Shown piece after piece: positions 14,875 to 51,385 of a DNA stretch of 64,000 nucleotides. Each line of letters starts with the position of its first letter. Positions within the stretch are counted from its first letter, which is position 1. A model generated the notes under the pieces. The model made no database searches. It was not told the origin of the DNA and saw only the letters and a program-made list of their open reading frames with translations. A program made the translations under genes and the position numbers. Source of the stretch: Candidatus Latescibacterota bacterium (lineage in GTDB: Bacteria > Latescibacterota > UBA2968); NCBI GenBank assembly GCA_965207885.1, contig OZ242311.1, positions 3,552,001 through 3,616,000 of the forward strand, given 5' to 3'.

Positions 14875-14913
14875 AAAAAAATCCGTTGGCATACACAATC
14901 ACCAACGGATTTT
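14875..14913 (-). terminator. Intrinsic terminator ending the DUF6785-FtsX-OPT operon
   Basis: AAAATCCGTTGG-loop-CCAACGGATTTT stem followed by a T run on the minus strand, 25 nt after the OPT-like stop. Confidence 0.65.
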
Positions 14914-14938: not shown

Positions 14939-17383
14939 TCAGAACAACAAGACCGATACCGACTTCTGGATCATGGCAATGGACACAGACGCCATTCCCA
15001 CAAGTGCCATGCCCACGGAAAAGCCCACCGCCAATACTGTCGCGTAAAGGCGCCATTGTTTCTTGCCAAAACGACTCCAAAAATAGTAGCGGGCAATTAA
15101 CGCGCCAATGATCTGAGTGATCATCGTATGCGGAATATTGGTCAAACTTTGCACATATCCAAAGATCAGCAAAATGGGCAACCCAAATATGGACAAAATA
15201 ACAAAGAATACAAGTCCAACGGCAAATCCTGTACCAATAACCCAGGGTTTCAGAGCCTCAAACAAAATGGGCTGATCATCTGACGACTGCAAAAATGCCC
15301 CGTCAAAAGAAGGCACCTGATCGATCTCGTATTGATAGAACAACTCGCGGTCCTGCGGATCCATCGCCCTGGAAATGATCATTTCTGGATTTGGCGTATT
15401 CAGATGCGCGCCATCATCCGCACTGCGTATTTCCGGTGCAGAAGGCAACCCCTGAGCCAGAGCATCGGAAATATCGGGAGGAGCGCGACTCAAAGTTGCG
15501 GGCGGGTATGGCGGAGGCTGTGCCTCATCAAAATTGGTGAAAAAATAAGCAGTACTCGACCACGGGCTATACCTGCGCTCTTCAATGGGTACACTATCCG
15601 GATCATCGGGCGTTGCCCGCACCCGCCAGTACCACCATGCATTATTCGACAAATTGGCCGGAGTCCACGTTACAGTACCCTCTTGTGAATAGTCAACTTC
15701 GCCGCGCATAGTACTGGTAATCCACACACATCTCTGAAGGGCGCGCAACGGCCAGAACAATTGCACGTAAGGATATGCATCGGACGGAATGGGCGCGAGT
15801 TTCCAAATATAGGACCAGTACATAAAACTGGTCAGAAAAACCAGCGGCACCATAAAAATTTCGGCTCTCAGAATGCTCCTGAAGCTGGTACCCGTCAACT
15901 CAATCTCTCGGAAACGCTGCGCCGCTGCGCCGTAGTTATCCAGGCCAAAATCCACAAACCAGATATGAATGCCTCTGAATCCGCTCAGGAAAATAGTAGC
16001 TTCTTTAATGTATGGGATACTCACATTTTGCCCCACCATACCGTCTAAGCGGGCATTGACAAATGAAATGAGAGGCGTATATACAAATGCAAAAATGAAG
16101 AAAAACACCAACAAGGTGGTAGTCACCAACTGCGGAAACAAAATTTTTGATATAACAATGGTGTACAAGCTCGCCAGGCAAAATAATACCACGCAGAACC
16201 AAATTTTAAAATCGCCTCGCCCGGGCGGCGTCTCCCACGATCCCTTCTCGGTCTTTTCAATCCGCGCGGTTCGCACCCCCCGCCACACCTGATAAAACCC
16301 AATGACAGTAATGGCAAATGTAATGCCAATGCCAAAGCTCATCCAGAAATCAATACCCGTCACAAAGTGAGTCTGGATCGTGTCCATCCCCATAAACCAG
16401 TGGGGCATATATCCATGCTTGTGTAAAAGTGGACTTGCAATTGTATGGATGACCACCCCGACAAAGGACCCTATCACCGCCCAGAAGGGAGCGAGAAAAC
16501 CCGTAAAAATGGGGCCCAGGTGCAGGGTGAAACCCAGAGGTGTCGCGGGTAAAAAATATCCCGTATATTGAGTGAAATCGACCCAGGGAATTGGAATAAG
16601 CTGTACAGGCTGTTCCATAAACGCACCCGTAATAGCCGGCACAGCTACATAAACCATCCCCCACACCACGCCGATCACAGCGCCAATAGAAAACATGCGC
16701 CAGCGCCACGTAATATCTCCACTGCTCTCTTCTGCCAATGCCATGGCTCCATGCGCGTTGATGGGTGCAAACGGAAATGGCAGATTCTCGTAATCGGACG
16801 TGATTCGGAATAACACATAGCTGGCGGTAAACCAGGCAATGCGCCCCATAATCGTGCCCATTACCAGGAACGCAATGGGCCAAAACCAATCGGCGTGTAA
16901 AAACGTGCGCTCGATCAGCGCCTCGGAATTTGCAGGAGGTGCCCACCACCACAGCTCACTCAATGACTTTTGTATGCCAAATTGCACGGCTGCGGGCGAC
17001 TGCACAAAATACTGATGCCACAACAGACCTTCAAACGCATTGGACTCCCGATTGACCAGCGAACTCGTCACATAATACAACAGATAGACTTCTTGTCGCT
17101 TGAGTATGGTAAACGAGCGCTTTGCCAGTTCGATGAACAAAATAATCGTGACCCACTGCGCCGCTGCACCGATCGAGCCACCGATCATCAGATCCAGATA
17201 AATATTGCCGGGCACCATCACAATCGACACAAATAACGCACCCACAATGGTTTTGCTATTGAACCCATCGACAAATTCGTCTGGCTCGTCAAGCAGATCG
17301 CGATACTCTTCAATCTCTTCAAACTGCGTATTTTTCTTTGGTTCTTTGTCTTTGTTGCGTCTTAAAAGATTGCCTAAAAGCAT
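14939..17383 (-). CDS. OPT-superfamily-like polytopic membrane protein with an inserted FN3/Ig-like soluble domain
   Basis: Many TM segments; AAAQWVTIILFIE, ENLPFPFAPI and IPYIKEA motifs; hydrophilic ~140-aa insert before the last TMs. Confidence 0.65.
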   Translation of the reverse strand: MLLGNLLRRNKDKEPKKNTQFEEIEEYRDLLDEPDEFVDGFNSKTIVGALFVSIVMVPGNIYLDLMIGGSIGAAAQWVTIILFIELAKRSFTILKRQEVYLLYYVTSSLVNRESNAFEGLLWHQYFVQSPAAVQFGIQKSLSELWWWAPPANSEALIERTFLHADWFWPIAFLVMGTIMGRIAWFTASYVLFRITSDYENLPFPFAPINAHGAMALAEESSGDITWRWRMFSIGAVIGVVWGMVYVAVPAITGAFMEQPVQLIPIPWVDFTQYTGYFLPATPLGFTLHLGPIFTGFLAPFWAVIGSFVGVVIHTIASPLLHKHGYMPHWFMGMDTIQTHFVTGIDFWMSFGIGITFAITVIGFYQVWRGVRTARIEKTEKGSWETPPGRGDFKIWFCVVLFCLASLYTIVISKILFPQLVTTTLLVFFFIFAFVYTPLISFVNARLDGMVGQNVSIPYIKEATIFLSGFRGIHIWFVDFGLDNYGAAAQRFREIELTGTSFRSILRAEIFMVPLVFLTSFMYWSYIWKLAPIPSDAYPYVQLFWPLRALQRCVWITSTMRGEVDYSQEGTVTWTPANLSNNAWWYWRVRATPDDPDSVPIEERRYSPWSSTAYFFTNFDEAQPPPYPPATLSRAPPDISDALAQGLPSAPEIRSADDGAHLNTPNPEMIISRAMDPQDRELFYQYEIDQVPSFDGAFLQSSDDQPILFEALKPWVIGTGFAVGLVFFVILSIFGLPILLIFGYVQSLTNIPHTMITQIIGALIARYYFWSRFGKKQWRLYATVLAVGFSVGMALVGMASVSIAMIQKSVSVLLF

Positions 17384-17404
17384 AGATTGTCCCGTGTCGT
17401 GATA

Positions 17405-20400
17405 CTATCCGCTGACCGTTGCCTTGGAGGCAGAGAGCAATTCCCGCCCTTTTTCCGTGTATTTGACGCGATTGGTCGGATCAACTGTTCGCCAGATCAA
17501 AAATTGTTTGCGAAGCGCGTTCATAAAGCCTTGATTGACCCGCCGCCACGATGCCGCATCGCCCGAAAGTCGGTCTATTGTCAGGGTCATCGCAAAAATA
17601 TTGTGCTCACCCATGGGCACGGCTTCAAAATGCACCTGTTGACTCACGCCCAAATCATAAGGTGCCAACCATATCGTCGTATCAATCGTATATCCCGCGC
17701 CGGTTGCTGCTTCAACCGAACCAAAACGCGCGCCATCTGTATAAAACGCGCCCATGGACTCACCCACATGCGACTCGAAATAATCGACCAGAAATACCGA
17801 CAGCCCAAACACATCCTTGCCACCCACGGTAAATGGAAACTCAAAATGCCAGTGATCACCTTCTGGATCGGGCAATTTCCAGCGGCGCGTCACATCGGGC
17901 ACAGCCATAAGTGACGCCTGACGCGCGGGATAGAGCGACGAAATCAAAACCACCACGATCACCAGCACCGAAGAAATCACCGTTGACAATGCCGAATAAT
18001 TCACATTAAGCCCTTGCAACCACCCCTGCCACAACAAAACTTTAATCACCCCTTGACCGAGCAAATACCCCGATACAGTCCCCAACACGGCATAAACACA
18101 CGCCTCGGCAATAAACAAAAAAGAGATGTGTACAGGTGCCAATCCCACAGAAGAATAAATGCCGATCTCGCGGAAACGCTCGTACACCGATCCCATCATC
18201 GTATTCAGCACAATTAGCGCAGCCACCAGAATGGGAACGAACAAATTGGCCAAGCCGGGCAATGGCCCCCATCCCATCGAACTGTAAATTGACACCTGGA
18301 TTTTGCCATCTGCCATTGGAATGCCCGCAAACACCACCACCGACAACCGCGACACATATTCTTTGACCTGTTCTTCGACATCTACGCCCTCGTGCAAACG
18401 AATCGCCACAGATTGCAGTGGGCTACCCACTTCGCGCAATATATTATAGGGAATAATGGCAATATCGTCGGGGTCAATATGCTCGAATGGCATGTTCTCG
18501 AGCTGAGGTTGTTCCAGACCCTGTTTTTCGCGAGTCTCCTGCTGGGTCAGCCGGGAGACGATCTCATCATCCGTCAGTTTAAAATCCGCCGGACTCAAAA
18601 TTTCGCCGTCCAGGTCCGGATGATTGCGCATTTTTTCCGCGTCAATCAATCCCACAACTTTCAACTGTTTGCCAAATAATCGCACGCTCTTTTTGCCAAC
18701 ATCTTCAGGCTCTACCTTGAGTAATTCGGCTATTTTGCCGGGCAAAATACACGCGATCTCACCCTCTTTAAACCACCGCCCATGGCTCAACAAAGTATCG
18801 ATCCTCGTGACCGCGGGTTCATTGACCGATAGTCCCAATATCCCCAGCACTTTGGTCGCTTTTTCCGGCGTTTCAATCGGCGTCTTTTTCAAGTCTCGAG
18901 TCACATACCAGCTGCGCGGCGCAATCTCACCCTGATCAAAAAAATTAATGCGGGCATAATCATAAGCCGTATCCTCCAGCGGTCCCCAAAACTGGCTGCG
19001 GATCAACAGCCCCGGATACTTACCTTCGGTATCCAGCAGAATTTGATAAAAATCGAGCGTTGTCTTAATCGACGTAAAGGACAATACGGTAAACGTCAAC
19101 AAGACCAGCGTGGCAAACGTCAGGCCAGTGCGCATTTTGCGCTTTTTCATGTTGGCAATGCCCAACTGAAATGCCGCTACCGAAGCACTTATCCGCCCCA
19201 CATCCGTATCGTGCAACAACACCTCTTCTGTACGCAGTTGCCGAATATTGTCGTGAAACCGCCCCGACACAATGGCAATCACAAAAATCGCCAGTGCCAA
19301 AATCACAAAAGCCAGCAAAATCACAAACGGATTGGAAAGATCAAAAGCGGGATGCACCTGCGAAAGCACGATCCAGATCACCATAAAAGCCGCACCAAAG
19401 CCGCCGATTTGTAGGCGAATATCGGAAAAAGTAAAAATCAACCGCTCGACAAAAAACGCGCACGGAATGACCAGTATCATAAAGAAAATCACGCCTCGAA
19501 TCACATCGTTTTGCGTTGCTTTCACGTCTGGATAGGCGCGCGATTCGAGGCCCATGCCCGCACGCGTGTGTTTGACAAACAAATCCCATTTCTTGTCTTG
19601 CATCGACTCTTCGGCCAGATCCAGATGGTATTTGGCCTGCTCGTGCAAATTGGTCATCCGCTGGTTTTCAATCGAATACTTCGCCAATTCGCGTATTCGC
19701 GCCTCATTCAGCGTCCACATATCTTTTGCGGCCTGGAACGAAGAGTGAATAAACGACCCGTGTTGCAAAGTCTGAAACCCATCGCCGCGCGCGACTTCCA
19801 CGCTTTCCGCGCTTTTTGAATTCAGCAACATATAGCGCACGCCTATATCCAGTGACCTGCCCCCCAACCGCATCACAATTTTGACCCGTTCGCCCGGCGT
19901 TGTAAAAATGGTTCCCACCGGTTCTTCTGGACCAAAGCCAATGGCATAGCCGTATTCCTGCGGCGCAGTATTGCCGGGACCGAGTACGCTGATGCTCGAC
20001 AATTTGGATAAATAACGGGGATCGACTGTATCGTAAAAATCCGTTGCAATACACGGGAACAAAATCCGCGTGCGCTTGGATATCCACCAATCCATATTAA
20101 ACTCACCCCGGTATATGCGCGCCTGACGACCGTGATTTGGCGCGTACGTAATTTCACCGCTTTCTGGATCCATATAAAAAGCCTTCACATCTACGCGGCG
20201 TTCGGCAATGCCCGGCATGTAAAATTCGCCATTTTCGTCGGCAATATCGTAGTAGATGCGGCGCACGCCTTTGATCGATTTGTCAACGCCCATTCGCAGC
20301 GAAGCCACGGCACCGGGACGGGGGCGATCAGGGATAATGCTCCGTCGGGGAAATGTGCGCACAAAACCCTGTAAACCGCGCATGCGATCGTCGGGATCCA

Positions 20401-21928
20401 GCTTGTAATCGGGCAAAAAATCCTCGGAATTTAACCCGAGATCAAGCACACCGGCAAGCAGGCGTATCTGTCCGGTGAGATTTTTGAAATTTACATGTTC
20501 GGATTTATCCAGTGGGGTATCTACTCTGAAACGCGCATCGTTGACCGTAATGAGCGACAGTGCCGGTGTACCCGCTTCCAAAACGACCTCGCCATCTGTT
20601 TTCAGGATTTTCCCCGGAATATACATATCCCAGTTCATGCCGCCTTTTGGATTGATTCCATCGATGAGGGCATCGGCTGGGTCCAGGTCAAATCGCTCGG
20701 CTATGGCCTCTGAATAATGTATAAACGACTTGCCAAATGGCGTAAAAAAACGCTTGTAATAATAATTGCGCGTGCTGTTCCAAACCCCGATTTCATCTGT
20801 CTGACTCGTCAAATCCAGAGAAATCAACAGCGGCAACTCGAGGGGTTCGGTCATCAATGCGGCAAAATGCTTTTCCTTGCGCGAATGCCTGCTCAAAAAA
20901 TCGCAAATGCCCCTGAAGCCGAGATGATGCGCGGAAGAGGCGAGAAACAAAAGCGTGTGTTTGGGCGGGTACTTGCTAAAATATTCGACCAACTTCATCA
21001 TGCCCACAATCCCACACGCCATCTCTGCGCCTGGCGCACGCGCGGGCACCACCGACATCGCATCGTAATACGTATTGATCACCACAATTTTTTCGCTCAA
21101 TACGGGATCGGTTCCGCGAATCCAGCCCAAAATATTCCGCGTCTCTTTCTTTTCCCAATCCATTCGCGCCTTCAAAGTGACATTGACCTCATCCTTTTGC
21201 GCGAGCAAAGCTTTGAGCTTTTCGCCGCTTTTCTTATCGATCCAAAAACGCTCTACACTATTGGGCACCTGCAAAAATTTGGTCTCTGACTGCGCGGTAA
21301 ATGTGGAATCGGGTTCAACAAATATTATCTGCTGCGCGCCGAGCATGGCAGCATTGAGCCAGTTGTTCCACGAATTAAATTCCATCAACACCACCGCACC
21401 CTCTACATCGCGCCCATTAAATTCCGATACATCGCCATCGCCACCCCACAAGAGATGTCCCTGCACGCCACTCGTGGGCAAAGTGGTCGTCTTGACCAGA
21501 TTGGGCCACAAACCGTGAATGGTAAAAACCTCACCGGTGTCTTCTACCGTCAGAGTTCCACCATGGTCTATGGGCACGGCCACATCATAGGTCTCGGCTT
21601 CCACGTCTTCCATGCCAAAACGCCGAAATTCAGAAATGATAAAATCCGCGGTTTTTTCGTGCCCCTCATACCCCACTACGCGCGATTCGTGTTGCGTAAA
21701 CTGGTCCATCAACGTGCGAATCCCATCTTCGCGCACAGCATCCAGAACCCGTGTGCCCACTTCTTCTGCACGCGGAACGGGTACAGGAGGAACCTCGCTG
21801 GGCATTTCCAATCCCAACAAAGCAGCTATATGAGGATTTACGCGATAGGGACCGGCAATCAGGAGCGCGGTAATAAAAATCCCCAAGCCAATGAGGCTCA
21901 ATGCGATGAGCTTGTAATATTTATCCAT
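17405..21928 (-). CDS. Large membrane protein: degenerate M28-peptidase-like periplasmic domain fused to FtsX/MacB-like permease domains
   Basis: NILGWIRG..VVINTYYD..APGAE (M28-like); NMKKRKMRTGLT (MacB N-terminal TM) and SVYERFREIGIYSSVGLAP..FIAEA (FtsX). Start MDKYY overlaps the upstream stop. Confidence 0.72.
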   Translation of the reverse strand: MDKYYKLIALSLIGLGIFITALLIAGPYRVNPHIAALLGLEMPSEVPPVPVPRAEEVGTRVLDAVREDGIRTLMDQFTQHESRVVGYEGHEKTADFIISEFRRFGMEDVEAETYDVAVPIDHGGTLTVEDTGEVFTIHGLWPNLVKTTTLPTSGVQGHLLWGGDGDVSEFNGRDVEGAVVLMEFNSWNNWLNAAMLGAQQIIFVEPDSTFTAQSETKFLQVPNSVERFWIDKKSGEKLKALLAQKDEVNVTLKARMDWEKKETRNILGWIRGTDPVLSEKIVVINTYYDAMSVVPARAPGAEMACGIVGMMKLVEYFSKYPPKHTLLFLASSAHHLGFRGICDFLSRHSRKEKHFAALMTEPLELPLLISLDLTSQTDEIGVWNSTRNYYYKRFFTPFGKSFIHYSEAIAERFDLDPADALIDGINPKGGMNWDMYIPGKILKTDGEVVLEAGTPALSLITVNDARFRVDTPLDKSEHVNFKNLTGQIRLLAGVLDLGLNSEDFLPDYKLDPDDRMRGLQGFVRTFPRRSIIPDRPRPGAVASLRMGVDKSIKGVRRIYYDIADENGEFYMPGIAERRVDVKAFYMDPESGEITYAPNHGRQARIYRGEFNMDWWISKRTRILFPCIATDFYDTVDPRYLSKLSSISVLGPGNTAPQEYGYAIGFGPEEPVGTIFTTPGERVKIVMRLGGRSLDIGVRYMLLNSKSAESVEVARGDGFQTLQHGSFIHSSFQAAKDMWTLNEARIRELAKYSIENQRMTNLHEQAKYHLDLAEESMQDKKWDLFVKHTRAGMGLESRAYPDVKATQNDVIRGVIFFMILVIPCAFFVERLIFTFSDIRLQIGGFGAAFMVIWIVLSQVHPAFDLSNPFVILLAFVILALAIFVIAIVSGRFHDNIRQLRTEEVLLHDTDVGRISASVAAFQLGIANMKKRKMRTGLTFATLVLLTFTVLSFTSIKTTLDFYQILLDTEGKYPGLLIRSQFWGPLEDTAYDYARINFFDQGEIAPRSWYVTRDLKKTPIETPEKATKVLGILGLSVNEPAVTRIDTLLSHGRWFKEGEIACILPGKIAELLKVEPEDVGKKSVRLFGKQLKVVGLIDAEKMRNHPDLDGEILSPADFKLTDDEIVSRLTQQETREKQGLEQPQLENMPFEHIDPDDIAIIPYNILREVGSPLQSVAIRLHEGVDVEEQVKEYVSRLSVVVFAGIPMADGKIQVSIYSSMGWGPLPGLANLFVPILVAALIVLNTMMGSVYERFREIGIYSSVGLAPVHISFLFIAEACVYAVLGTVSGYLLGQGVIKVLLWQGWLQGLNVNYSALSTVISSVLVIVVVLISSLYPARQASLMAVPDVTRRWKLPDPEGDHWHFEFPFTVGGKDVFGLSVFLVDYFESHVGESMGAFYTDGARFGSVEAATGAGYTIDTTIWLAPYDLGVSQQVHFEAVPMGEHNIFAMTLTIDRLSGDAASWRRVNQGFMNALRKQFLIWRTVDPTNRVKYTEKGRELLSASKATVSG

Positions 21929-23912
21929 AGCGATGTACCCAATGTCCGCGTTCTGGGAACCAGATGATGTCAATGCCTACTGACAAAGTCACACCGAGAA
22001 TATATCCGACGAGCAGACCGATGAACAGGGGCCTCGATTTGCGATAAACCGTTGGCCCCCCCACTTTTATGATGACAAACTTAATCAACCATGCAAGAAA
22101 AGTTGTAAAGCTGGTGCGCCGGACCAGATAAGAACCCGAAATCGCCAGCCCCACGGGATGCAGCGGCCACCACGCAAAGCGATAGCGCATATAGATCAAC
22201 CCGGCCATCAGCAGACCGCCAATGCCAAAAAATACCGCTTGTTCGGGATGTTCCTCGTAAAACGGTGGCTCGTCGGGTTTTTTAATTACATTAACTGTAC
22301 CCTGGAAATGGCGTTCGGCTGCCCGCGTAATCTCCCAACTGTTGAAATTATAAGCCCCTTGATCGTAACCCAACCACACGGTGAACAACATATTAAACAG
22401 CAAACTGACCATAAACACCAGCCCAATAGCCCCCATCAGCAGCCGCCGCTGATTGCCGGGAACGCCTTCGGAGACGCGCCCTGCATGGGCCAGCGCGGGC
22501 AAAAACAACCCCTTAAAATGCCCGGTAATCAAACCCGAATAGCGGTAAGCGACATGGGTAGCAAGCGGGATATTGCGCCGTCCAAAAAACGGTGCAACCA
22601 TACTCCAGGCACCTATGGGTGTATTGGTAAATGGCATGCCAGTATCGGCCAGGATCTTCGCCATACCCGTATAGACAAAAATCACTGCGAGAAGGAGTAA
22701 AAATCCTTGCAGCGGATCGAAATTCATCTGCGTCAGCCAGACAAACAGATATACCAGGCTGCATAGCAGGCCAATACAAGCGGCGCGATAAGACATCAAT
22801 TCATTGGAGTCATCCACCGTTGAATCTCTCCCAAGTGCCTTCATCAACACATCTCGCAAATGTCTTCTCGCAACCCAGAACGTCGAACACACAAAAACAA
22901 TAAATGCCCCTGCAATCTGCCAGTAATACACCCCCGTGCGATAATAAGGGGTGATGGCTCTATAGCCCCACTTATTGAGCTGACCGCCCTCAAAGATAAA
23001 CAACAAATCAAAAAACCAGATTGAAAACAGAACATCCAGGCTGGCAAAATAAGAAAAAAGTATGGTAAAAATGCCAAAGTATCCCCTGATAGGCGGCCAT
23101 TGCCAATCAATCCAGTACCACCGCGATCGGTAAATGGGAAAACGCGGAAAGCCCGGTACAAAGTAATTGATACAATTCCAGGCCAGCACGCCAAAAGCAA
23201 TGGCAAATCCGATCCAGAACAAGCGGTTGCGCGTAAACTCGGGCAACCATCCCTCGCCATCGCCCGGTTTAGAAACTATATCGATCAACGGCGCCATCGC
23301 GGGAAAAACCAAACGTTCGTTTTGCACCCACTGCTTTCTCAAAATAGTGGCGACACACGCCAGCATCAAAAAAGCCGCCGCCACAACCGTCGTCCACCAG
23401 AACAGGGGCAATACCCAAACGTCCCAGGGGATAGCAGCACCGCTCGGCAAGCCTTCGTAAAACCACGCAACGGCATTGCCCTCGGGACTCGGCAACAGCC
23501 AGTTGGGCAAAAGCGGATGCAAATGCTCAGCCCACTGATTTTCTTCCGTAGCAAAATAATAAGGCGCCGTGATATAGCCGATCAAATATCCCGTCAGGCC
23601 AAAACACGGCAGTGCCGCGCCCACGAGGCCCATCGCCAGAATCGCATGCCATTCGCCTGGTGAGAGCGCCCAGCCGGTCATTTTGGCAACAATGGCGAGT
23701 CCGATCATCAGGATCATCAGCACGATCAGCATGGCCATTGGGATGTGGCTATACGTCATCAGCGGAGCGTGCAAGATGTAGCGCACACAAATAGCCAGCA
23801 GATCGAGAGCAATGACGAGAAATACGCCCAATCCCACAGCGCGCAATGTTACCGCGGGTTGTGAACTCGCATCATCTGATTCCGTCTGAATATTTTGTGT
23901 ATCAAGAGCCAT
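21921..23912 (-). CDS. DUF6785/DUF6784-like polytopic membrane protein (OPT-related putative peptide transporter)
   Basis: RKQWVQNERLVFP, YFASLDVLFSIWFF and RYRFAWWPLHPVG motifs; many TM segments. Confidence 0.65.
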   Translation of the reverse strand: MALDTQNIQTESDDASSQPAVTLRAVGLGVFLVIALDLLAICVRYILHAPLMTYSHIPMAMLIVLMILMIGLAIVAKMTGWALSPGEWHAILAMGLVGAALPCFGLTGYLIGYITAPYYFATEENQWAEHLHPLLPNWLLPSPEGNAVAWFYEGLPSGAAIPWDVWVLPLFWWTTVVAAAFLMLACVATILRKQWVQNERLVFPAMAPLIDIVSKPGDGEGWLPEFTRNRLFWIGFAIAFGVLAWNCINYFVPGFPRFPIYRSRWYWIDWQWPPIRGYFGIFTILFSYFASLDVLFSIWFFDLLFIFEGGQLNKWGYRAITPYYRTGVYYWQIAGAFIVFVCSTFWVARRHLRDVLMKALGRDSTVDDSNELMSYRAACIGLLCSLVYLFVWLTQMNFDPLQGFLLLLAVIFVYTGMAKILADTGMPFTNTPIGAWSMVAPFFGRRNIPLATHVAYRYSGLITGHFKGLFLPALAHAGRVSEGVPGNQRRLLMGAIGLVFMVSLLFNMLFTVWLGYDQGAYNFNSWEITRAAERHFQGTVNVIKKPDEPPFYEEHPEQAVFFGIGGLLMAGLIYMRYRFAWWPLHPVGLAISGSYLVRRTSFTTFLAWLIKFVIIKVGGPTVYRKSRPLFIGLLVGYILGVTLSVGIDIIWFPERGHWVHRYG

Positions 23913-24072
23913 TGGCGCGATTTTTGTGATATGAAGTAAAATTCCTTAGAAAATGTGCGGGAATAATTAACCCCCGCCCCTTGCATTTGTCAAATGGTTT
24001 ATCTGTTTATAATTGTAAGCCTGCATATAGCGCAACATCGCTTCTGTTTGCGAAAAAACGTACGCAAGAACC

Positions 24073-24126: not shown

Positions 24127-24202
<76 letters not shown>

Positions 24203-24313: not shown

Positions 24314-25105
24314 CTATAAACTCTGAGCAACCCGAAACCCCACATAAAGGCTCCCGGCAAAAGTCCTGTGTCGGTCGCGAGCAGCCGAGCGAAGGAAATA
24401 TCCTTCCAGGTACCATGCACCGCCGCGCACCACGCGCGCAGTAGAGTCGCCGACCTCCCACGCAGACCCGTCATTGGGTGCCCCCACATATCTATTATTA
24501 TACCGATCCTGAGTCCACTCCCACACATTGCCGTGCATGTCGTGAAGCCCCCAACTGTTGGCCTCGAACGATCCCACAGGTGCTGACATCTCATTATCCC
24601 ACTGACTGCCGCACCCATTGCAATTGGCGCGGTTGTGGCCGAGATTATTCCCCCAGCTATACCTCGTCGCTGTTCCCGCGCGCGCCGCATACTCCCACTC
24701 TGCCTCACTTGGCAAACGATAGTTTTTCCCCGTCTGTTCCGATAACCAGGCTGTGTACGCCACCGCATCATCCCATGTGACATTGATCACGGGACGCCGT
24801 CCTCGACCAAAACCCCTGCCATCTGCCCGCTCGCGCCCCGTCGCATCCGTGAAGACATCGTATTCCTCAAACGTCACCTCGTACTTCGACAGCGCGAACG
24901 ATGCAAGCGTCACCTCATGCACCGGCCTCTCGGCATTGGTGCAACTTCTCCCCGACACGCACCCCATCTTAAAACGCCCCGCGGGAATCACCACCATCTC
25001 CGGCGGCTTAAAAGAAGCCCCTTCCTCCTGTGAAACCTGAGCGGATGTATCCGTGAAAAACCCCAACAAAAATAGAACGGAAAAGCTACTGATGATTCCC
25101 CGCAT
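24314..25105 (-). CDS. Secreted formylglycine-generating-enzyme (SUMF1/FGE-sulfatase) domain protein
   Basis: Signal peptide; RLPSEAEWEYAARAG, GLHDMHGNVWEW, RGGAW, GFRVA; lacks the core catalytic Cys pair of true FGE; AGGAG RBS. Confidence 0.85.
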   Translation of the reverse strand: MRGIISSFSVLFLLGFFTDTSAQVSQEEGASFKPPEMVVIPAGRFKMGCVSGRSCTNAERPVHEVTLASFALSKYEVTFEEYDVFTDATGRERADGRGFGRGRRPVINVTWDDAVAYTAWLSEQTGKNYRLPSEAEWEYAARAGTATRYSWGNNLGHNRANCNGCGSQWDNEMSAPVGSFEANSWGLHDMHGNVWEWTQDRYNNRYVGAPNDGSAWEVGDSTARVVRGGAWYLEGYFLRSAARDRHRTFAGSLYVGFRVAQSL

Positions 25106-25230
25106 GATATCTCTCCTGTCATTATTACTTAAATGCGCATCACATAGAAAATAAGACAACTTCTTATGGATGAGAAATATATTTTGCACCATATCATCCA
25201 TTCATCGCTCAAATATTAGATTTTCCAGTT

Positions 25231-25995
25231 TCAATGCACATCTCGTTTTACGATGGTCACATTGACCAGGGCACCGGGGCGGACGTACTTTCCCGCATTC
25301 AAAAAAAGACCCGTTACTTTGCATGTCCCATTTTCCGGATCAATAACAGGACTGATCCCGATAACGCGCCCGGGCAGCGCGCGTTTTCCGCCAGCGGTCG
25401 GCACGGCAGACAGCGGCATATTCATTCGGATCGCGTTCAGCCTTTTCTCGGACACAAACAGATGCACCTGAAAGTCCATAGGGTCGATGACCCGCGCGAC
25501 CGCGGAATAGGCCAGCACCCAGTCGCCTACCTTTACATTGACCTCAACCACCATCCCGTCCTGGGGTGCGATGATCGCGGTTCTGTCCAGTTCCATACGC
25601 GCGGCGACCCAGTTATAGTGTGCAACCTCGGCATCAAACCGGACATTTTCGAGCTGTTGGTCGCTGATCAGCTTCTTATCGTGCAACATTTCCAATCGCG
25701 CTTGCAGGTTCTGGGCCTTCTTCAGTGCAATTCGAGCCGCGGCTTCCTTCACGCGCAGATCCCGACGAGTTAATACCATGAGGGTATCCCCTTTTACCAC
25801 CCGGTCTCCCACCTCGAAGTTGACCTGCTGCATCCGCGCGTTCATCCCGGCATAGACCGTCACCGATCGCGCAGGTACTAAAGGTGCTCTCAATATCAGT
25901 TCTTGTGCATTGACCCTTGCGGCAACGAGCATGAGGAACAGACCGCACAAAAACATCGCGTTGTATATCATAGTTGCAAGTGACTGGTGAACCAT
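25231..25995 (-). CDS. RND/MacA-type periplasmic adaptor (membrane fusion protein), no adjacent pump
   Basis: EVGDRVVKGD and IIAPQDGMV lipoyl half-motifs flanking a coiled coil; ISPVIDP..RPG; GGAGG RBS. Confidence 0.8.
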   Translation of the reverse strand: MVHQSLATMIYNAMFLCGLFLMLVAARVNAQELILRAPLVPARSVTVYAGMNARMQQVNFEVGDRVVKGDTLMVLTRRDLRVKEAAARIALKKAQNLQARLEMLHDKKLISDQQLENVRFDAEVAHYNWVAARMELDRTAIIAPQDGMVVEVNVKVGDWVLAYSAVARVIDPMDFQVHLFVSEKRLNAIRMNMPLSAVPTAGGKRALPGRVIGISPVIDPENGTCKVTGLFLNAGKYVRPGALVNVTIVKRDVH

Positions 25996-26048
25996 GGGAA
26001 TACCCTCCTGTATGGGTTGGAATTGAAACTTCGTGCCCTTCATATAGG

Positions 26049-26063
26049 GCAAAAACTGTGCCA
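26049..26063 (-). promoter_or_regulatory. sigma54 (RpoN) -24/-12 promoter
   Basis: The minus strand reads TGGCAC-AGTTT-TTGC, an exact consensus match, 53 nt upstream of the MFP start. Confidence 0.8.
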
Positions 26064-26140
26064 AAATTCACAAAAAACCCGTAACTGATTGCAGGAGAGC
26101 GTGTTGTTAAAAAATGCCGAAAAAAGGATGTGCGGAAAAC

Positions 26141-26198
26141 TGTGTCATATGACACCTTAGGTGTTTCAAATGAAACAGTAAGTGTTCCAAATGAAACA
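26141..26198. promoter_or_regulatory. Three palindromic enhancer-like sites at 21-bp period (bEBP UAS)
   Basis: TGTGTCATATGACACC (26141), TGTTTCAAATGAAACA (26162), TGTTCCAAATGAAACA (26183), about 80-135 bp upstream of the sigma54 promoter. Confidence 0.68.
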
Positions 26199-26243
26199 GT
26201 TGGGATTAGAATGAAATAGGGGGATTACGAAGGAAGATTACAC

Positions 26244-26274
26244 AAAAAATGCCCTGAAGAACACAGGGCATTTT
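26244..26274 (-). terminator. Intrinsic terminator after the beta-helix protein gene
   Basis: AAAATGCCCTG-7 nt-CAGGGCATTTT stem with a T tail on the minus strand. Confidence 0.6.
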
Positions 26275-26347
26275 GAAAGATATTTAGAGCATACCATACA
26301 ACGGGCTGTCATCATCGGTCCTGCGGGCATTGTTTGCGTTTTGCCAT

Positions 26348-28855
26348 TCAATTTCCCTCTCTGATCTGTGTTCTGGCCGCCACAGCTTTTACAGCTTCTA
26401 TGCCCAGGCGGTCTTCGAGTTGTTTCAAGTACAAACTGCGCGGAGAGACCTTCAGCCCGTGTGATTCCCAATATCCATCTTCGCGCCTGTACCAGCCGTC
26501 TCGTTTCTCGCCGATGCAACCAATGGCATAATTTTGTGATGTTGGGGGTTTTTGCACGATAAAGCTCTCTGCTTCGCAATTCCACAATACTTTTTGCGCG
26601 CCCGCCCAACCGTGGCCGGTGCCCGAACCTTGCCGATCCTGAACATTGATGGCATTGCCGTTTACGATTACGTTGTCAAATAGGGTGCAAACAGACCACC
26701 GGTGATGGGGGCCTGAATCATTATGCGCGATATCCGCCGTGCAATCCAAAAACACATTTGGCCCTGGTACGCGGGCGTGTAGCACATAATCGTGGCGACC
26801 CCGCCGGGTATAACACCGTTGCACGAGGGACAATTGCCCGTGGATGGGAAATGAATATCGCCGTCCCCCGGTGATCTGTGATACGGGATCCAGACACTGG
26901 CTATCCTGCACGGTCATCCATTTTGCCAGATTGCCAATGGTTACACATGCATAGCCAAAGTGAACCGAGGTGATATCGCGTGCCCACGCATTCTGCACGC
27001 GTGAAAATACGACGAAATTCCAGGCGTGATCTTCATCGATAAACTCATCCTCCCTACTTTCATCTTTTTCGCTGTCATCAAACTCCGATACACCGCGCAA
27101 GTTCTCGATGCCGACCTGTTCAATGCGCCCGAGATATTCGTATTTGAGAACCCACCCGCCGCCGTATTCGCGTTCAAATGCATTGCCCATGGGCGCGTCG
27201 ATTGTTATCCGGTTGCCTTCTATGGCAGTTATGGTACGGTCAAAGCGAAAGTCGTAAGTGCCCGGTTCCCACTGCCGAACATCGGGATGTGACATCTCAA
27301 TGCGATCCATCCCTATTGCCGCAATCCACTGTGCCGTACTGGGGCGATGCACGAGGATCTCATCGCCAACTGCAAAACCCGAAGCATCTACTATAGAAAA
27401 TATTTTTGCGCCTACGGGGACATAATCATCTACAATGGCCTGTCGCGTTCCCCCTACCTCTTGCCAGAATGATCTGCCTTCAAACTCGATCAATGTGCGC
27501 TGTTCTGTTCCCGTTGCAATCAATACCGTGCCGTTTTCACCTTCGCCTTCACCGCGCAGTACAACGCCACTTGCCCGAATGTACAGGGTCCCACCAATCC
27601 GATATTTTCCGCGCTTGAGTAACAAGGTCCCGCGAAATCCATTGGCGTCCAGTGCGCGCGTAGATACGTCGTCAATTGCCGCTTGCAATCGCGCTGTGTC
27701 GTCTCCCCCGGCCTGTGGCTGTACCGTCATCGCCACTGGCACATCTGGCAGAGCCACACCACCACCCATATAGCCACAATGTGAAAAGTCTGGAATGATA
27801 TTGCCCTTCTCATCTGGTACATAGGCCAGTCGCCCGTCAGGTCCCGAATATACCAGTTTACTGTTCTGAGGTACATAAGATACCGAACTGCTCCGCGTTT
27901 GGATAAAATCTGCAACTTGCGCCCAAATTGGGATAGGATATATGGAGGGGTCACGTGAGGCGATAATATCCCGAGGAATTGGCACGCGGATCCTGGTTGT
28001 TCCCGCCTCGATCGTCTGTGTCAATAAAATCTGCGTTTCGGTTCCCACCACAATGTTTAATGGTTGTGTGGTGGCGTTTTCAAATGTGATGGGTATATAC
28101 CACTGCGTGCCGCCAGATCCGAGCCCAGCGGCAAAAGTGAGGAAATCCCCAAAACCGATTTGTCCATCAGAATCGAGATCGTAGATGGGATCATATCCCG
28201 CATCGGTCTGCGTTGCTCCGAATTTCTGAACAAAGAGGATAAAATCACTAAAACCAACGGCTCCGTTGTCATCGAAATCGAGATGGTCAATGGAATTTAT
28301 TTCCTGTACTGGCGCGTCAACTTGCCATGAAAAGGTCTGATTGACGGTTGCAATATGATCGATGAACAGGCGCGCGTTTGAATTTTGACTGGTTTCTGTT
28401 CTATACGTGATGTATCGCCTGTTGTAATCGGGGTCTCTGCCCCAGATCTCGTGGGGTTTTGCCAGTTCTACAACGGCAAGTTGCCAGCCCTGAGGCGGTG
28501 TTTGTCCCTCCCAGATCGTATATATGGCTTCCCTACCGCCGCCCAGAGGGTGGTTGCGGACCTTGATTTTGAGATCCCTCAGGCCATTGCCCTCTACTTT
28601 CCACCAGAAGCTCAAGCTGTGTCTTTGGGAGATATCCTGCCCCGTGCTAAAAAAATTGTAGGTAAAGAATCCCGTCTGACCCGCTGGTGGGGAAGTAACG
28701 ATGGCAAAGCGACCCTCCTGGGCATCTCTGGATAACTGTACATTGTTGGACCATCCGGATAGATTGTCGCAATAGGTCAGCGTTTGCACCGGATCGCTGG
28801 CAGAGCAAGGACAGGCCCACAGAAATAGAATTGTGCAGGTGATAATTGATCGCAT
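26348..28855 (-). CDS. Secreted multidomain protein: N-terminal CBM-like domain, EF-hand/dockerin-like pair, C-terminal pectate-lyase-like beta-helix
   Basis: Signal peptide; DFDDNGAVGFSDF..DLDSDGQIGFGDF; IPDFSHCGY, DDTARLQAAID, SGVVLRGEG, GPHHRW, GHGWAGA. Confidence 0.65.
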   Translation of the reverse strand: MRSIITCTILFLWACPCSASDPVQTLTYCDNLSGWSNNVQLSRDAQEGRFAIVTSPPAGQTGFFTYNFFSTGQDISQRHSLSFWWKVEGNGLRDLKIKVRNHPLGGGREAIYTIWEGQTPPQGWQLAVVELAKPHEIWGRDPDYNRRYITYRTETSQNSNARLFIDHIATVNQTFSWQVDAPVQEINSIDHLDFDDNGAVGFSDFILFVQKFGATQTDAGYDPIYDLDSDGQIGFGDFLTFAAGLGSGGTQWYIPITFENATTQPLNIVVGTETQILLTQTIEAGTTRIRVPIPRDIIASRDPSIYPIPIWAQVADFIQTRSSSVSYVPQNSKLVYSGPDGRLAYVPDEKGNIIPDFSHCGYMGGGVALPDVPVAMTVQPQAGGDDTARLQAAIDDVSTRALDANGFRGTLLLKRGKYRIGGTLYIRASGVVLRGEGEGENGTVLIATGTEQRTLIEFEGRSFWQEVGGTRQAIVDDYVPVGAKIFSIVDASGFAVGDEILVHRPSTAQWIAAIGMDRIEMSHPDVRQWEPGTYDFRFDRTITAIEGNRITIDAPMGNAFEREYGGGWVLKYEYLGRIEQVGIENLRGVSEFDDSEKDESREDEFIDEDHAWNFVVFSRVQNAWARDITSVHFGYACVTIGNLAKWMTVQDSQCLDPVSQITGGRRYSFPIHGQLSLVQRCYTRRGRHDYVLHARVPGPNVFLDCTADIAHNDSGPHHRWSVCTLFDNVIVNGNAINVQDRQGSGTGHGWAGAQKVLWNCEAESFIVQKPPTSQNYAIGCIGEKRDGWYRREDGYWESHGLKVSPRSLYLKQLEDRLGIEAVKAVAARTQIREGN

Positions 28856-29058: not shown

Positions 29059-29838
29059 TTACTCAGCCGTTGGATCAAAGCCTTCAATACGCCCTTCCTG
29101 AATCTCGATCTCATCGCGCCGTCTCACCCGCTCAACCTGTCCATCGCGCAAATCGACCACGCGATCAGATACCCCGAGCATCTTGTGGTCGTGGGTATTG
29201 GTCACAATGGTCACACCGCTTTCGCCCTGCATCTTGAGCAACAACTCGATAATTTCCTGTCCGGTCTTCAAATCGAGATTTCCAGTCGGCTCATCAGCCA
29301 AAATCAAATCGGGATCATTGGCCATCGCTCTGGCAATTGCCACGCGCTGCTGCTGTCCACCCGATAGCTCGTAGGGTTTGTGATGCAGGCGGTCGGAAAG
29401 GCCCACCAGCGACAATTTATGTGCTGCTTTCTCTTCGTAATCTTTGCGCGACATACCCGAAAACACCATGGGCAAAGCCACATTTTCAAGCGCCGTCATC
29501 ACAGGAATCAGGTTAAACGACTGAAAAATATATCCCACACTGTGGCAGCGCAAATAGGCAATTTGCCCCTGGCTCATATCGCCCATATTGGCACCGTTGA
29601 CCAATACAGTTCCCTTCGTGGGTGTATCCAATGCCCCGACCATGTTAAACATCGTGGTTTTTCCCGAGCCAGAAGGACCCATAATGGACAAATACTCACC
29701 GCGAATCACATCGAGGTTCACGCCTTGCAGGGCATGCACTTCCTGGTCGCCCATCCGATAGGTCTTCCAGACCCCTTGAACTTTGATAATATAATCTTCA
29801 GCATCAACCTGTTGTTCAGCAGCCGATTCCTGAGCCAT
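29059..29838 (-). CDS. ABC transporter ATP-binding protein, LolD/MacB/FtsE type
   Basis: GPSGSGKTT Walker A, GYIFQSFNL, LSGGQQQRVAIARA, ILADEPTGNLD, THD; GAGGAG RBS before MAQES. Confidence 0.92.
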   Translation of the reverse strand: MAQESAAEQQVDAEDYIIKVQGVWKTYRMGDQEVHALQGVNLDVIRGEYLSIMGPSGSGKTTMFNMVGALDTPTKGTVLVNGANMGDMSQGQIAYLRCHSVGYIFQSFNLIPVMTALENVALPMVFSGMSRKDYEEKAAHKLSLVGLSDRLHHKPYELSGGQQQRVAIARAMANDPDLILADEPTGNLDLKTGQEIIELLLKMQGESGVTIVTNTHDHKMLGVSDRVVDLRDGQVERVRRRDEIEIQEGRIEGFDPTAE

Positions 29839-30029
29839 TGTGTTCTCCTCTGAAACAATAAAGTTCACCATTGAACTCACGTATGGTAGCGAAAACCCAT
29901 GGGCATGTCAAGCCATTTTAATCGGAATAAAATTCTACGTGATTCCACAGGCGTCTTCTGCTATATTCTAAACCGCATTGTGCTACACACCAGTAGTGTC
30001 TCCAAAACTATGGCAGAAAGGACCATATC

Positions 30030-34250: not shown

Positions 34251-35459
34251 TAAATCCAAATCCCCAATCGCCTCGCGCACAGCTTCTATTGTATCTTCAA
34301 TATCCGCCTCTGTATGTGCCAGGGAGAGAAACATCGGATGCGAGGGATGTAAATAAAACCCACGCGCAAGACATCCCCGCAACACCTCCATGCAGCGATC
34401 GCGGTCAGAATCGTCTATCACTGGACGCGGCATTGGCCCGACGCCAATGAGATGATAACTCAGTCCTCCTGCTTCGCAAACAGCGTTGATACCTTCGATC
34501 AATCGGCTTCCAATTTTCCATTGATAGGCAATGCCATTCCGCCTCTGCAGTTCCCCTATCACGACCTCCATAGCCGTCAAACTGAGCGGATCCCCGTGCG
34601 CGGTACCTGTCATCCACACCGACTGACACGCTTTTGCCCCCAGAATCTCGCGCTTCCCGGCAATAAAACTCCCCGCATACCCATTGCAACACGCTTTGCC
34701 AAACGTCGCAATATCGGGTACAACCCCATAATATTCCCCCCCACCGCCCATCGCCACGCGAAAACCCACCTTTGTCTCGTCAAACACGCAGACCGCGCCG
34801 TGTGCATGCGCTAGATCTACACACCCTTGCAAAAACCCATCCGGCGGGCCGCCCCCTTGAATCGTCTCCATCACCACACACGCCACCTGATTGTCATATT
34901 TCTTCAAACACGCTTCCAGAGCGTCTAAATCGCCGTAAGGAACCGCACAGGTCAGCTCACTGACGGATTTCGGGACACCCTCGTCGCCGGGACGCGCCCA
35001 ATCGTGCCAGCCGTGATACCCGCACGTAATCACTCTATCGCGCCCCGTATATACCCGCGACAGGCGCACCGCGCTGGAAGTCGCCGCACTGCCTCCAATA
35101 AAAAACCCCACTATCTCAGCACATGGAATCACTTCAATGAGCAATTCCGCAACCGCCAACTCCCTGGGATACGCCAGACTGTACACCGTGCCATTCGCCA
35201 CCTGCTCGTGTATTGCACGGCACACAGCAGGATCATCATACCCCAGAACAATCGGCCCGAAACCCATTACATAATCCAAAAACTCATTGCCATCCACATC
35301 CCAAAATCGCGCCCCCGACGCGCGCTGTACAAATGCGGGATAGTCCATATCGACCTGGCCAAAAATATTCTTATGCGGAATGTACCCGCGAACCAGAACA
35401 TCGCCATAGCGATTCAGCAGAGCCTTTGACTTTGCAATGGTGTAATTCTTTTTTGACAT
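34245..35459 (-). CDS. Class III aminotransferase (glutamate-1-semialdehyde aminomutase-like)
   Basis: WDVDGNEFLDY, GYHGWHD, VFDETKVGFR, PDIATFGK (PLP Lys). Confidence 0.85.
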   Translation of the reverse strand: MSKKNYTIAKSKALLNRYGDVLVRGYIPHKNIFGQVDMDYPAFVQRASGARFWDVDGNEFLDYVMGFGPIVLGYDDPAVCRAIHEQVANGTVYSLAYPRELAVAELLIEVIPCAEIVGFFIGGSAATSSAVRLSRVYTGRDRVITCGYHGWHDWARPGDEGVPKSVSELTCAVPYGDLDALEACLKKYDNQVACVVMETIQGGGPPDGFLQGCVDLAHAHGAVCVFDETKVGFRVAMGGGGEYYGVVPDIATFGKACCNGYAGSFIAGKREILGAKACQSVWMTGTAHGDPLSLTAMEVVIGELQRRNGIAYQWKIGSRLIEGINAVCEAGGLSYHLIGVGPMPRPVIDDSDRDRCMEVLRGCLARGFYLHPSHPMFLSLAHTEADIEDTIEAVREAIGDLDLL

Positions 35460-35647
35460 TTCGACCTCCTTCGCGCGTAAATTGAACCTCTTTTTCTAAC
35501 AAATGAACTTCTCACACAGACACAAGCACAAAATAGACTGCTTCTGCGCTCCTATTGTACTTGCCCCCCGTCTTTTCTTATCTTATCCTATTTTCAATAG
35601 AGAGATAGTTTTACACTTCTTACTTCTCACTTCTCACCGGAGAATTT

Positions 35648-36682
35648 ATGCCACGCGAACTCATTGCAGACCGGCCGGGACACACGACACTGCGAGAATA
35701 CGATGAAGAACCCTTAAAACGCGATCAAGTGCGTGCAAAAAGCTTGTTTTCGGCGGTAAAACACGGCACGGAGTTCCGGGGTTTTCAGGCCAATACACTC
35801 GATGCGTCCGATATTTTTAGCTGGGAATGGCGCATGCACCTGCGCGGGCAAAAACAGAAAGATGCGTTTCCCAAACGATTGGGCAATATGTATGTCGCCG
35901 ACGTGACAGACGTGGGACAAGACGTGTCAAATATTCGGGTGGGAGAGCGGATTTTTGGTCATGGTCCCGTTCGAGAGACGCATACACTTTCGGAGGATCG
36001 CGTAGAAAAATCTCCGGATGGCGTATCGTGGCAGGCTCTAATGGCTACAGACCCCGCAGGCGTTGCCCTCGGCGGCGTCAGAGATGCCAATATTCGCATC
36101 GGGGATCGCGTTGCGGTCTTTGGTCTGGGAGCAATTGGATTGATGACAGTACAACTCGCCCGCATCGCCGGCGCGCGCTGGGTTGCGGCAATTGACCCCA
36201 TTGAAAAGCGATGCCTGATTTCCGAAGCCTACGGTGCAGACCTCGTCCTGGATCCGCGCGAAGCTGATGTCGGCCTGGTCATTAAACAAGCCACCGCAAA
36301 ACTCGGCGTCGATGTATCCATGGAAACCAGTGGATCGTCCGCTGCAATGACCGATGCACTGCGCTCAACGCGCTATCAGGGCACCGTTGTATCCACAGCC
36401 TATTACAATACCCCCATGCAAAACCTGCATTTGACCGGCGAATGGCACCGCAATCGGATTCGCATTATATCCGTGAGGTCCGACAGCGAACCCTGGCTGG
36501 ATTACGGGTGGGACAAAAAGCGCGGAAATAAAGAAGCCTACGACCTGCTCGTTGACGGCCGTCTAAACGCCGAGGGCTTAATCGATCCCATCGTGCCATT
36601 TAATCGCGTTGCCGAAGCCTATATGCAAATGAATGAACATCCCGAAACTGGGATTAAACTCGGCGTTGATCATTCCCTCTAA
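35648..36682 (+). CDS. MDR-superfamily dehydrogenase
   Basis: KHGTE, VFGLGAIG, GVDVSMETSG. Confidence 0.8.
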   Translation: MPRELIADRPGHTTLREYDEEPLKRDQVRAKSLFSAVKHGTEFRGFQANTLDASDIFSWEWRMHLRGQKQKDAFPKRLGNMYVADVTDVGQDVSNIRVGERIFGHGPVRETHTLSEDRVEKSPDGVSWQALMATDPAGVALGGVRDANIRIGDRVAVFGLGAIGLMTVQLARIAGARWVAAIDPIEKRCLISEAYGADLVLDPREADVGLVIKQATAKLGVDVSMETSGSSAAMTDALRSTRYQGTVVSTAYYNTPMQNLHLTGEWHRNRIRIISVRSDSEPWLDYGWDKKRGNKEAYDLLVDGRLNAEGLIDPIVPFNRVAEAYMQMNEHPETGIKLGVDHSL

Positions 36683-36704
36683 TGGGTGATTTCAACATTT
36701 ACTC

Positions 36705-51174: not shown

Positions 51175-51385
51175 AAGGACTTTGGGAAACAGGCGGAAAG
51201 TTGTATGAGCGTGCGGGTAATAGGTCGTTAGACAAAGTACATAATAGCACAAGCCACATGAAAGTCAAGATAAAATCCGCAGAAATTGGCGGGAGATAAA
51301 CATCGGTAAGCGCGTCTTTTTTTCAGAGGTAAAAAGCCGTATATTCCGTTGATCGTTAAACTCATTTTTTTAAAAAAGGTTCCTC

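Follow-up and report, generated by a model that had tools for sequence, protein, structure and literature searches.

A 64,000-nucleotide stretch of the genome of a Candidatus Latescibacterota bacterium (positions 3,552,001 to 3,616,000 of contig OZ242311.1; here called the window, whose own numbering is used unless the contig is named) carries three adjoining genes for large membrane proteins, designated g1, g2 and g3. The source genome is a single contig of 6.23 Mb, 97% complete. We favor reading the locus as a conserved inner-membrane module, with g2 and g3 as its core and g1 as a frequent third member, that captures peptide-like molecules and imports them with the help of an ATPase encoded in trans; the chances of this proposal as a whole seem to us about even. 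It draws support from the coupling of the genes, their adjacency, paralogous pairs in the same genome, matching phyletic patterns, the clades formed by relatives of g1 and RNA contigs that bridge the gene junctions. The narrower claim, that g2 and g3 form a functional unit, is a likely one. The unit and its borders are as follows.

21921-23912, minus strand: g1, 663 aa, a polytopic membrane protein with DUF6785 and DUF6784, a predicted remote relative of the OPT superfamily
17405-21928, minus strand: g2, 1507 aa from its ATG; 17405-21973 and 1522 aa from an upstream TTG
14939-17383, minus strand: g3, 814 aa
14875-14913, minus strand: intrinsic terminator closing the g1-g2-g3 unit, a hairpin at 14878-14913 with a T-run to 14875
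24127-24202, plus strand: tRNA-Phe gene, the upstream boundary of the unit, at the edge of a lineage-specific insertion

The stop codon of g1 and the ATG of g2 lie in an 8-nt overlap (common sequence ATGGATAA), which suggests translational coupling; 21 nt separate the g2 stop (17405) from the g3 ATG (17383). A first-pass annotation, made from the sequence alone, had described three co-oriented genes with this overlap and this gap, and its coordinates and distances are all correct. The terminator that it placed after g3 is borne out as well: the 12-bp hairpin has a folding energy of -19 kcal/mol (z -3.92), which none of 200 shuffles matches. A consensus terminator scan did not pick up the 14878-14913 hairpin because its loop is 12 nt. 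The tRNA-Phe gene is also found upstream of g1 in four of seven other loci scanned (L022, L028, L047 and L058). In the leader, about 45 nt 5' of the g1 start codon, lies a GC-rich 8-bp hairpin with a T-rich tail (23957-23977, minus strand), which may be an attenuator or another regulatory element. Contigs from the metatranscriptome libraries of two studies (sponge and coral) match all three genes at 90-99% identity. They span the junction of g2 with g3 (16560-17894 is one example) and that of g1 with g2 (20904-22373); such contigs cannot establish that the genes share one transcript, and they may stem from carried-over DNA. The RNA runs X1-X3 leave 24840-28240 uncovered, to which no meaning is attached.

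The genes g2 and g3 are seldom apart. Among 80 loci anchored on g3-like genes and drawn from species-representative genomes, a g2-like gene ends no more than 400 nt upstream of the g3-like gene in 72 and 428-511 nt upstream in three more. With identities of 52-97%, this adjacency in 75 of the 80 loci is very tight and old. One of the remaining loci has g2 behind a tandem g3 duplicate, another has it 6.4 kb off, and in three (L076, L084 and L095) no g2 was found near g3. The window's own genome has two further copies: at 5.93 Mb a g2' (70% identical to g2) lies downstream of a DUF6785 gene, and at 2.10 Mb a g2'' (36-47% identical) is followed by g3'', the sole g3 paralog. Across 151 sampled genomes of the phylum, where the C-terminal half of g2 served as query, g3 is present in 136 and g2 in 137, many genomes having 2-8 matches to each. 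One family, f10, has neither gene in any of its 13 genomes, and the sole other misses are two small genomes, 57-67% complete. Co-localization and co-occurrence, which the first-pass annotation had proposed to look for, are therefore both found.

DUF6785 is a looser companion. A complete g2 adjoins g3 in 67 loci, and DUF6785 lies directly upstream of it in 48 of these; it is an accessory, a frequent third member but not a fixed one. The assignment of g1 to this family, already suggested at first pass, is confirmed: Pfam places DUF6785 on it at 6.7e-97 (325.5 bits; the match runs the full length of the profile, positions 1-498 of 498) and DUF6784 at 6.7e-22 (78 bits), both above cut-off. BLASTP of g1 against g3 finds nothing (best E 0.66), the relationship being visible by profiles only: the DUF6785 profile aligns with that of the g3 family over 578 columns in hhalign (98.9% probability, E 1.8e-17). 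This match, together with the OPT fold predicted for g3 below, supports the view that both flanking proteins are OPT-superfamily relatives, as had been proposed.

The source genome holds exactly 50 DUF6785 genes, g1 among them, and 48 of the 50 do not adjoin a g2-type gene. About nine come after a fixed trio, consisting of a SusC-like TonB-dependent receptor (~1040 aa) and proteins of 750 and 330 aa without Pfam match (for example at 1095987-1105239, 3913169-3923000 and 6142513-6153000 of the contig); others neighbor sulfatases, Gfo/Idh/MocA oxidoreductases, enolase-superfamily (MR_MLE) enzymes, FG-GAP/ASPIC proteins and sugar-acid enzymes. The company of SusC-like receptors, sulfatases and sugar-acid enzymes favors the import direction, and suggests that DUF6785 proteins are the inner-membrane importers of loci resembling polysaccharide utilization loci in Latescibacterota. 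In the literature that was covered, no paper on DUF6785 was found. When 65 DUF6785 proteins are placed in a tree by a quick maximum-likelihood run, the g2-linked copies fall in two well-supported clades. The first (support 99) holds the window's g1, its orthologs, the copy beside g2' and two unlinked paralogs; the second (support 100) holds the copies of a group of loci at 55% identity. The association with g2 is thus specific, and was either very old or made twice. The same tree draws attention to two near-identical DUF6785 genes (contig 46277-48391 and 5851594-5853708; branch lengths 0 and 0.003), and mirrored pairs of FtsX genes occur at 34372-36865 and 5859986-5862479 of the contig; the two findings together point either to a large inverted duplication or to an artifact of assembly.

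Another perspective holds that these proteins are co-regulated and physically independent. g1 and g3 would then be proton-coupled importers of OPT type, g2 with a trans ATPase would be a separate MacB-like machine, for example one processing or expelling material linked to the same substrate, and the operon would be shared only from serving one pathway. OPT transporters normally stand alone, DUF6785 proteins evidently work without g2 in the 48 cases just described, and three g3-like genes lack an upstream g2. Yet the tightness and age of the g2-g3 adjacency, the nearly identical phyletic patterns of the two genes and the coupling suggested by the g1-g2 overlap all argue the other way, as do three conserved transmembrane (TM) helices of g2 that have no role in known MacB systems. 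We regard physical independence as rather unlikely.

To return to the favored module, its membrane path would be supplied by the OPT-fold permeases, g3 among them. This protein has no Pfam match at E ≤ 0.1 and no NCBIfam match; it belongs to a large family (one search gave 2400 matches, and in another 942 cluster representatives reached E ≤ 0.001), of which 24 of 62 aligned members match Pfam OPT (PF03169), the best at 5e-18. An AlphaFold (AF2) model built from the family alignment has a predicted local distance difference test score (pLDDT) of 91.0, and Foldseek matches it to the barley transporter HvYS1 (7wst_A, E 2.9e-08; 7wsr_A, 1.4e-07; probability 1.00), with TM-scores by target of 0.65-0.68; these are the sole two matches in the PDB at E ≤ 0.001. 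A profile of eight g3 homologs found nothing at E ≤ 1 among PDB sequences. By its model, then, g3 is a permease of the OPT/Yellow-Stripe fold, in line with the first-pass reading of it as OPT-like. It carries one conspicuous insertion:

15284-15700, minus strand: beta-rich domain inserted in g3, residues ~562-700, about 140 residues, with strands in the model

The structural matches of this domain are weak, and to immunoglobulin-like chains only. In ten longer homologs scanned, the same loop holds a PDZ domain in one, Reg_prop beta-propeller repeats in four, a WD40 domain in one and nothing recognizable in four; since the soluble domains differ in this way, the loop is a predicted site for variable binding domains.

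The partner, g2, is a mosaic with eight TM helices by hydropathy scan and model. Its parts are listed here in the numbering of the 1522-residue form; a helical stalk is also present.

Residues 22-40: N-terminal anchor TM helix
About 780 residues after the anchor: extracytoplasmic region
20891-21700, minus strand: M28/PA-like region, residues 92-361
20051-20386, minus strand: transthyretin-like or CarboxypepD_reg-like beta-sandwich, residues ~530-641
19268-19504, minus strand: three extra TM helices before the MacB module, residues 824-842, 856-874 and 884-902
MacB-type set: amphipathic helix, TM1 (951-969), periplasmic domain, TM2 (1238-1256), TM3 and TM4
18263-19066, minus strand: Porter/Sabre-type periplasmic domain between TM1 and TM2
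17912-18241, minus strand: FtsX domain, TM2 to TM4, residues 1245-1354
17408-17896, minus strand: cytoplasmic C-terminal domain of ~160 aa, family-specific and highly conserved, with many invariant residues

The permease half is the more readily recognized. Pfam FtsX (PF02687) matches at 4.5e-15 (56.2 bits, the cut-off being 25.5). A model covering residues 500-1522 (pLDDT 72.6) finds MacB (5gko_A) by Foldseek at E 9e-12 among 53 matches at E ≤ 0.001, and it resembles MacB, LolC/E, HrtB, YtrF, FtsX and YbbP, with Z up to 14.2 in VIA-align. The periplasmic domain taken by itself aligns with the MacB periplasmic region 3ftj_A (VIA-align Z 13.4, rmsd 3.1 over 175 residues). FtsX, MacB_PCD (PF12704) and Peptidase_M28 (PF04389) are all precomputed on many of the 708 detected homologs of g2. 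The model thus indicates that g2 has a complete permease module of MacB/FtsX type, that is, of ATP-binding cassette (ABC) systems belonging to type VII.

The head of g2 is more divergent. It lies below Pfam detection in the window's protein; phmmer matches it, over residues 77-346 of the query fragment, to the PA-domain M28 aminopeptidase 2ek8_A at E 3.2e-05. At the HHD, DD and EE motif positions of reference M28 enzymes, which we take to be the zinc ligands and the catalytic glutamate, g2 has YYD, E-M and HH. Since ligand positions are substituted, the head is not a canonical M28 enzyme; the earlier description of g2 as a pseudo-M28/FtsX fusion agrees with both halves. Across 52 family members YYD, GAE and HH are conserved at 90% or more. 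Transferrin receptor and nicastrin have catalytically inactive M28-fold ectodomains. Like them, g2 sets an M28/PA scaffold with substituted metal-ligand positions on a membrane protein, a likeness that suggests binding rather than hydrolysis; in g2 the substituted residues YYD, E and HH are conserved. Behind the head, the beta-sandwich (model residues 31-142) aligns at VIA-align Z 8-10 with 3e8v, 1qmu, 5aq0 and CnaB-type domains, a middling score that provides a lead only.

Two other parts of g2 bear on how the module might work. The three extra TM helices contain many invariant columns in the family alignment; a predicted complex of g3 with g2 residues 815-975 (these helices plus TM1) reached 0.02 against a mark of 0.32, was run without controls and carries no weight. 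Between TM2 and TM3 lies the stretch ERFREIG (ER.REIG, residues 1265-1271), whose E, R, E, I and G are invariant or nearly so in the 52 family members. In MacB, according to an excerpt of a review, TM2 and TM3 flank the major coupling helix, the one in contact with the ATPase (PMC5985334). The stretch is suggestive of a MacB-like coupling helix, and only suggestive because the model is unreliable there (pLDDT <50).

If g2 is driven by ATP, the ATPase would be encoded outside the operon, and the best candidate is a gene upstream:

29059-29880, minus strand: candidate trans ATPase of LolD/MacB/FtsE type, monocistronic, 5.1 kb upstream

NCBIfam assigns this ATPase to LolD (7.3e-70), followed by DarD, DevA, FtsE and MacB, the class that partners FtsX permeases. 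The gene has its own terminator-like hairpin (29010-28979), and its neighbors are a divergent TIM-barrel gene and a gene for an 835-aa beta-helix/lyase-like protein, with no permease gene. Three genes and the opposite-strand tRNA gene lie between it and the operon here; orthologs (78-93% identity) stand directly upstream of g1 in 13 of the 80 loci. In the sister family f2 the ATPase lies ~5.2-5.8 kb from the C-terminal half of g2, just upstream of g1, in 17 of 19 genomes (by manual comparison of coordinates), and in the window's genus the two may be as close as 5 kb or hundreds of kb apart. Members of the ATPase clade (E ≤ 1e-75) occur in 133 of the 151 genomes and in none of the 13 of family f10. 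Its candidacy is supported by the right class, the lack of an adjoining permease, the 13 adjacencies, the linkage in f2 and the gap in f10. The first-pass annotation had proposed to model the three proteins together with this ATPase; the class and some linkage stand, while the intervening tRNA and three genes and the presence of ~40 other orphan FtsX permeases speak against it.

Two other pairings were considered and set aside. The 835-aa gene (26348-28855) was tried as the permease of this ATPase; it lacks an FtsX domain, and its matches, all weak, are beta-helix/lyase-like. A paralogous ATPase at 1.306 Mb was tried as the partner of g2; it adjoins a short FtsX gene of its own.

A third perspective does away with the ATPase: g2 would be an ATP-independent scaffold or receptor, its FtsX module a structural anchor, and its C-terminal domain a regulatory or signaling end in place of a nucleotide-binding domain. 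In 67 of the 80 loci no ATPase lies within 10 kb (40% coverage, E 1e-10), and four more have only 26-27% matches downstream. The C-terminal domain that follows TM4 is highly conserved and family-specific: it matches nothing in Pfam or the structure atlas, and its profile found only two designed proteins among PDB sequences, without a qualifying stretch. A START/Bet v 1-like fold was also considered for this domain and rejected, its Z of ~8 in VIA-align being within the noise of the tool. The scaffold idea is hard to square with the (near-)invariance of ER.REIG at the place where the MacB review excerpt puts the major coupling helix (PMC5985334), and with a dedicated ATPase clade that shows the same phyletic gap as g2 and g3. 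We think it improbable.

In the module as we favor it, the steps would run as follows: the head of g2 would bind a ligand without cleaving it, probably a peptide or a peptide-like molecule; a LolD/MacB-type ATPase encoded in trans, that at 29059-29880 being the best candidate, would dock on the ERFREIG region between TM2 and TM3; docking would allow MacB-style mechanotransmission to be driven through the periplasm; and the OPT-fold permeases would give the membrane path that MacB-type proteins lack. The sum would be capture-and-feed import. By analogy the substrate is probably peptide-like, as hinted by the M28/PA scaffold, the chemistry of the OPT family (TC 2.A.67), which takes up oligopeptides or metal chelates coupled to protons, the one PDZ insert in a g3 homolog and a PqqD-like peptide-binding protein. 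The last is found in the 55%-identity group, where g2-g3 is followed by this protein and another of 332 aa. The corresponding pair in the window's own genome lies at 4642385-4643848 of the contig, away from all three g2 loci, and the genes downstream of it look, from their N-terminal sequences only, like suf genes for iron-sulfur assembly. In about 15 loci of the same group (L063-L100), genes for a NusG_II-domain protein and for a Hpre_diP_synt_I/ECF-S-like membrane protein lie upstream of g2 or DUF6785 in the same orientation.

A number of observations weigh against this proposal, some of them touching the make-up of the module. DUF6785 is not upstream of g2 in 19 of the 67 complete loci, and in all but one of these thousands of upstream bases are present. 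No fused g3-g2 protein occurs among 5072 longer candidates (1426-4070 aa), which is weak evidence. The f10 gap common to g2, g3 and the ATPase is a single phylogenetic contrast. The conserved substitutions in the head may mark an unconventional or re-purposed catalytic site, or a site for another metal or ligand. A further group concerns the source of ATP: the g1-g2-g3 operon contains no ATPase; the opposite-strand tRNA-Phe separates the candidate from g1 in all three ATPase-adjacent loci scanned; two genomes have the ortholog hundreds of kb off, again without an adjoining permease; and in f3, the largest family, the best matches are 57-59% identical and unlinked. The regions where the ATPase is adjacent are broadly syntenic in related genomes, and adjacency may be neutral, a matter of synteny only. 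The source genome has 53 FtsX-domain proteins, of which 40 are ADOP-like permeases of ~800 aa with a duplicated FtsX domain, and most FtsX permeases are not near any of the 30 genomic ATPase matches (again by manual coordinate comparison). With so many ATPase-less permeases, an ATPase without a permease of its own is not specific to g2 and could equally serve the other ~40. Tandem arrays of these two-FtsX permeases lie at 480879-501676 and 1801829-1839510 of the contig, and the 40 genes far outnumber the MacB-type ATPases found.

The segment between the tRNA-Phe gene and the ATPase (24314-28855) encodes an FGE-sulfatase, a 277-aa HlyD/RND_mfp adaptor and the 835-aa protein, here also hyaluronate-lyase-like. 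None of the three genes is at that position in 13 related loci, which suggests that the segment was inserted next to the tRNA gene. The adaptor gene (25231-26064) has an ortholog in nine of the 80 loci, all of them close relatives. Elsewhere in the window, the largest open reading frame encodes 2093 aa (44971-51252, minus strand).

Comparison with known systems shows where the locus departs from each. The known partner types of type VII ABC systems are an adaptor with an outer-membrane duct, a LolA-type carrier or a hydrolase; none of these is conserved at g2 loci, and the constant genetic partner of g2 is instead an OPT-fold permease. With MacB, LolCDE, FtsEX, HrtBA, YtrEF and YbbAP-TesA, g2 shares the four-helix FtsX module and the Porter/Sabre-type domain between TM1 and TM2; unlike them, it has no fused or operon-encoded ATPase, and it has an additional cytoplasmic domain and four extra TM helices, namely the N-terminal anchor and the three before TM1. 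The hydrolase-fold element of g2 is fused, spans ~780 residues and has its canonical ligands substituted. The nine adaptor orthologs fall short of a conserved membrane-fusion (HlyD/MacA) partner, unlike in tripartite pumps of MacAB-TolC type. As in ADOP proteins (NCBIfam TIGR03434), this FtsX permease is mostly found without an adjacent ATPase; the match of g2 to that model is weak (7.8e-05; 21 bits, where the cut-off is 622), and g2 differs in having one FtsX module rather than two, a peptidase-like head and an OPT-fold partner. On the other side of the pair, g3 shares the fold of OPT/Yellow-Stripe-like transporters (PF03169; HvYS1, 7wsr/7wst), and its family grades into Pfam OPT; unlike them, it lies below Pfam detection, carries the soluble beta domain of ~140 residues and is locked to a MacB-type gene. 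The amphipathic helix before TM1 and the conserved TM2-TM3 stretch recall MacB as the review excerpt describes it (PMC5985334), and the association with a hydrolase-fold periplasmic element recalls FtsEX-EnvC and YbbAP-TesA (PMC12646458).

That last likeness invites a further perspective, envelope remodeling on the model of FtsEX-EnvC, in which the pseudo-peptidase head would activate or position a hydrolase acting on the cell wall or surface, with recycling of released peptides by the OPT-fold permeases. Excerpts of two sources describe FtsEX as working with a catalytically dead peptidase-like partner (PMC7668044, PMC10214136), and nearly every family sampled from the phylum has the module. 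Set against this, 2-8 matches per gene per genome fit diversified transport better than a housekeeping machine, and no cell-wall genes appear in the conserved neighborhoods viewed. A remodeling role strikes us as very unlikely.

A bolder form of the transport reading would have a new hybrid class, in which a type VII mechanotransducer docks to OPT-fold permeases through the three extra TM helices, and an ATP-driven pseudo-peptidase head loads or gates the permease. We consider this form doubtful; if true, the hybrid would be an ATP-assisted secondary transporter and the chief means by which Latescibacterota and related uncultured phyla capture nutrients.

The first-pass annotation knew of no functional description of such a system, and a literature search, with subscription journals and supplementary files outside its coverage, likewise found no account of a system joining a MacB-like permease, an M28 head and an OPT protein. 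Expulsion, extraction and activation in the periplasm are the known tasks of type VII ABC systems; the OPT proteins known so far import on their own. Genes for the two form a conserved pair here, present several times per genome across nearly the entire phylum, and this points to a transport mode or an envelope function for which no described precedent was found. Three blocks of membrane proteins labeled 'hypothetical', abundant in metagenomes of sponge, coral and marine origin, thereby gain a first functional context. The findings further suggest that DUF6785 proteins are the main inner-membrane importers of the glycan-utilization loci of Latescibacterota.

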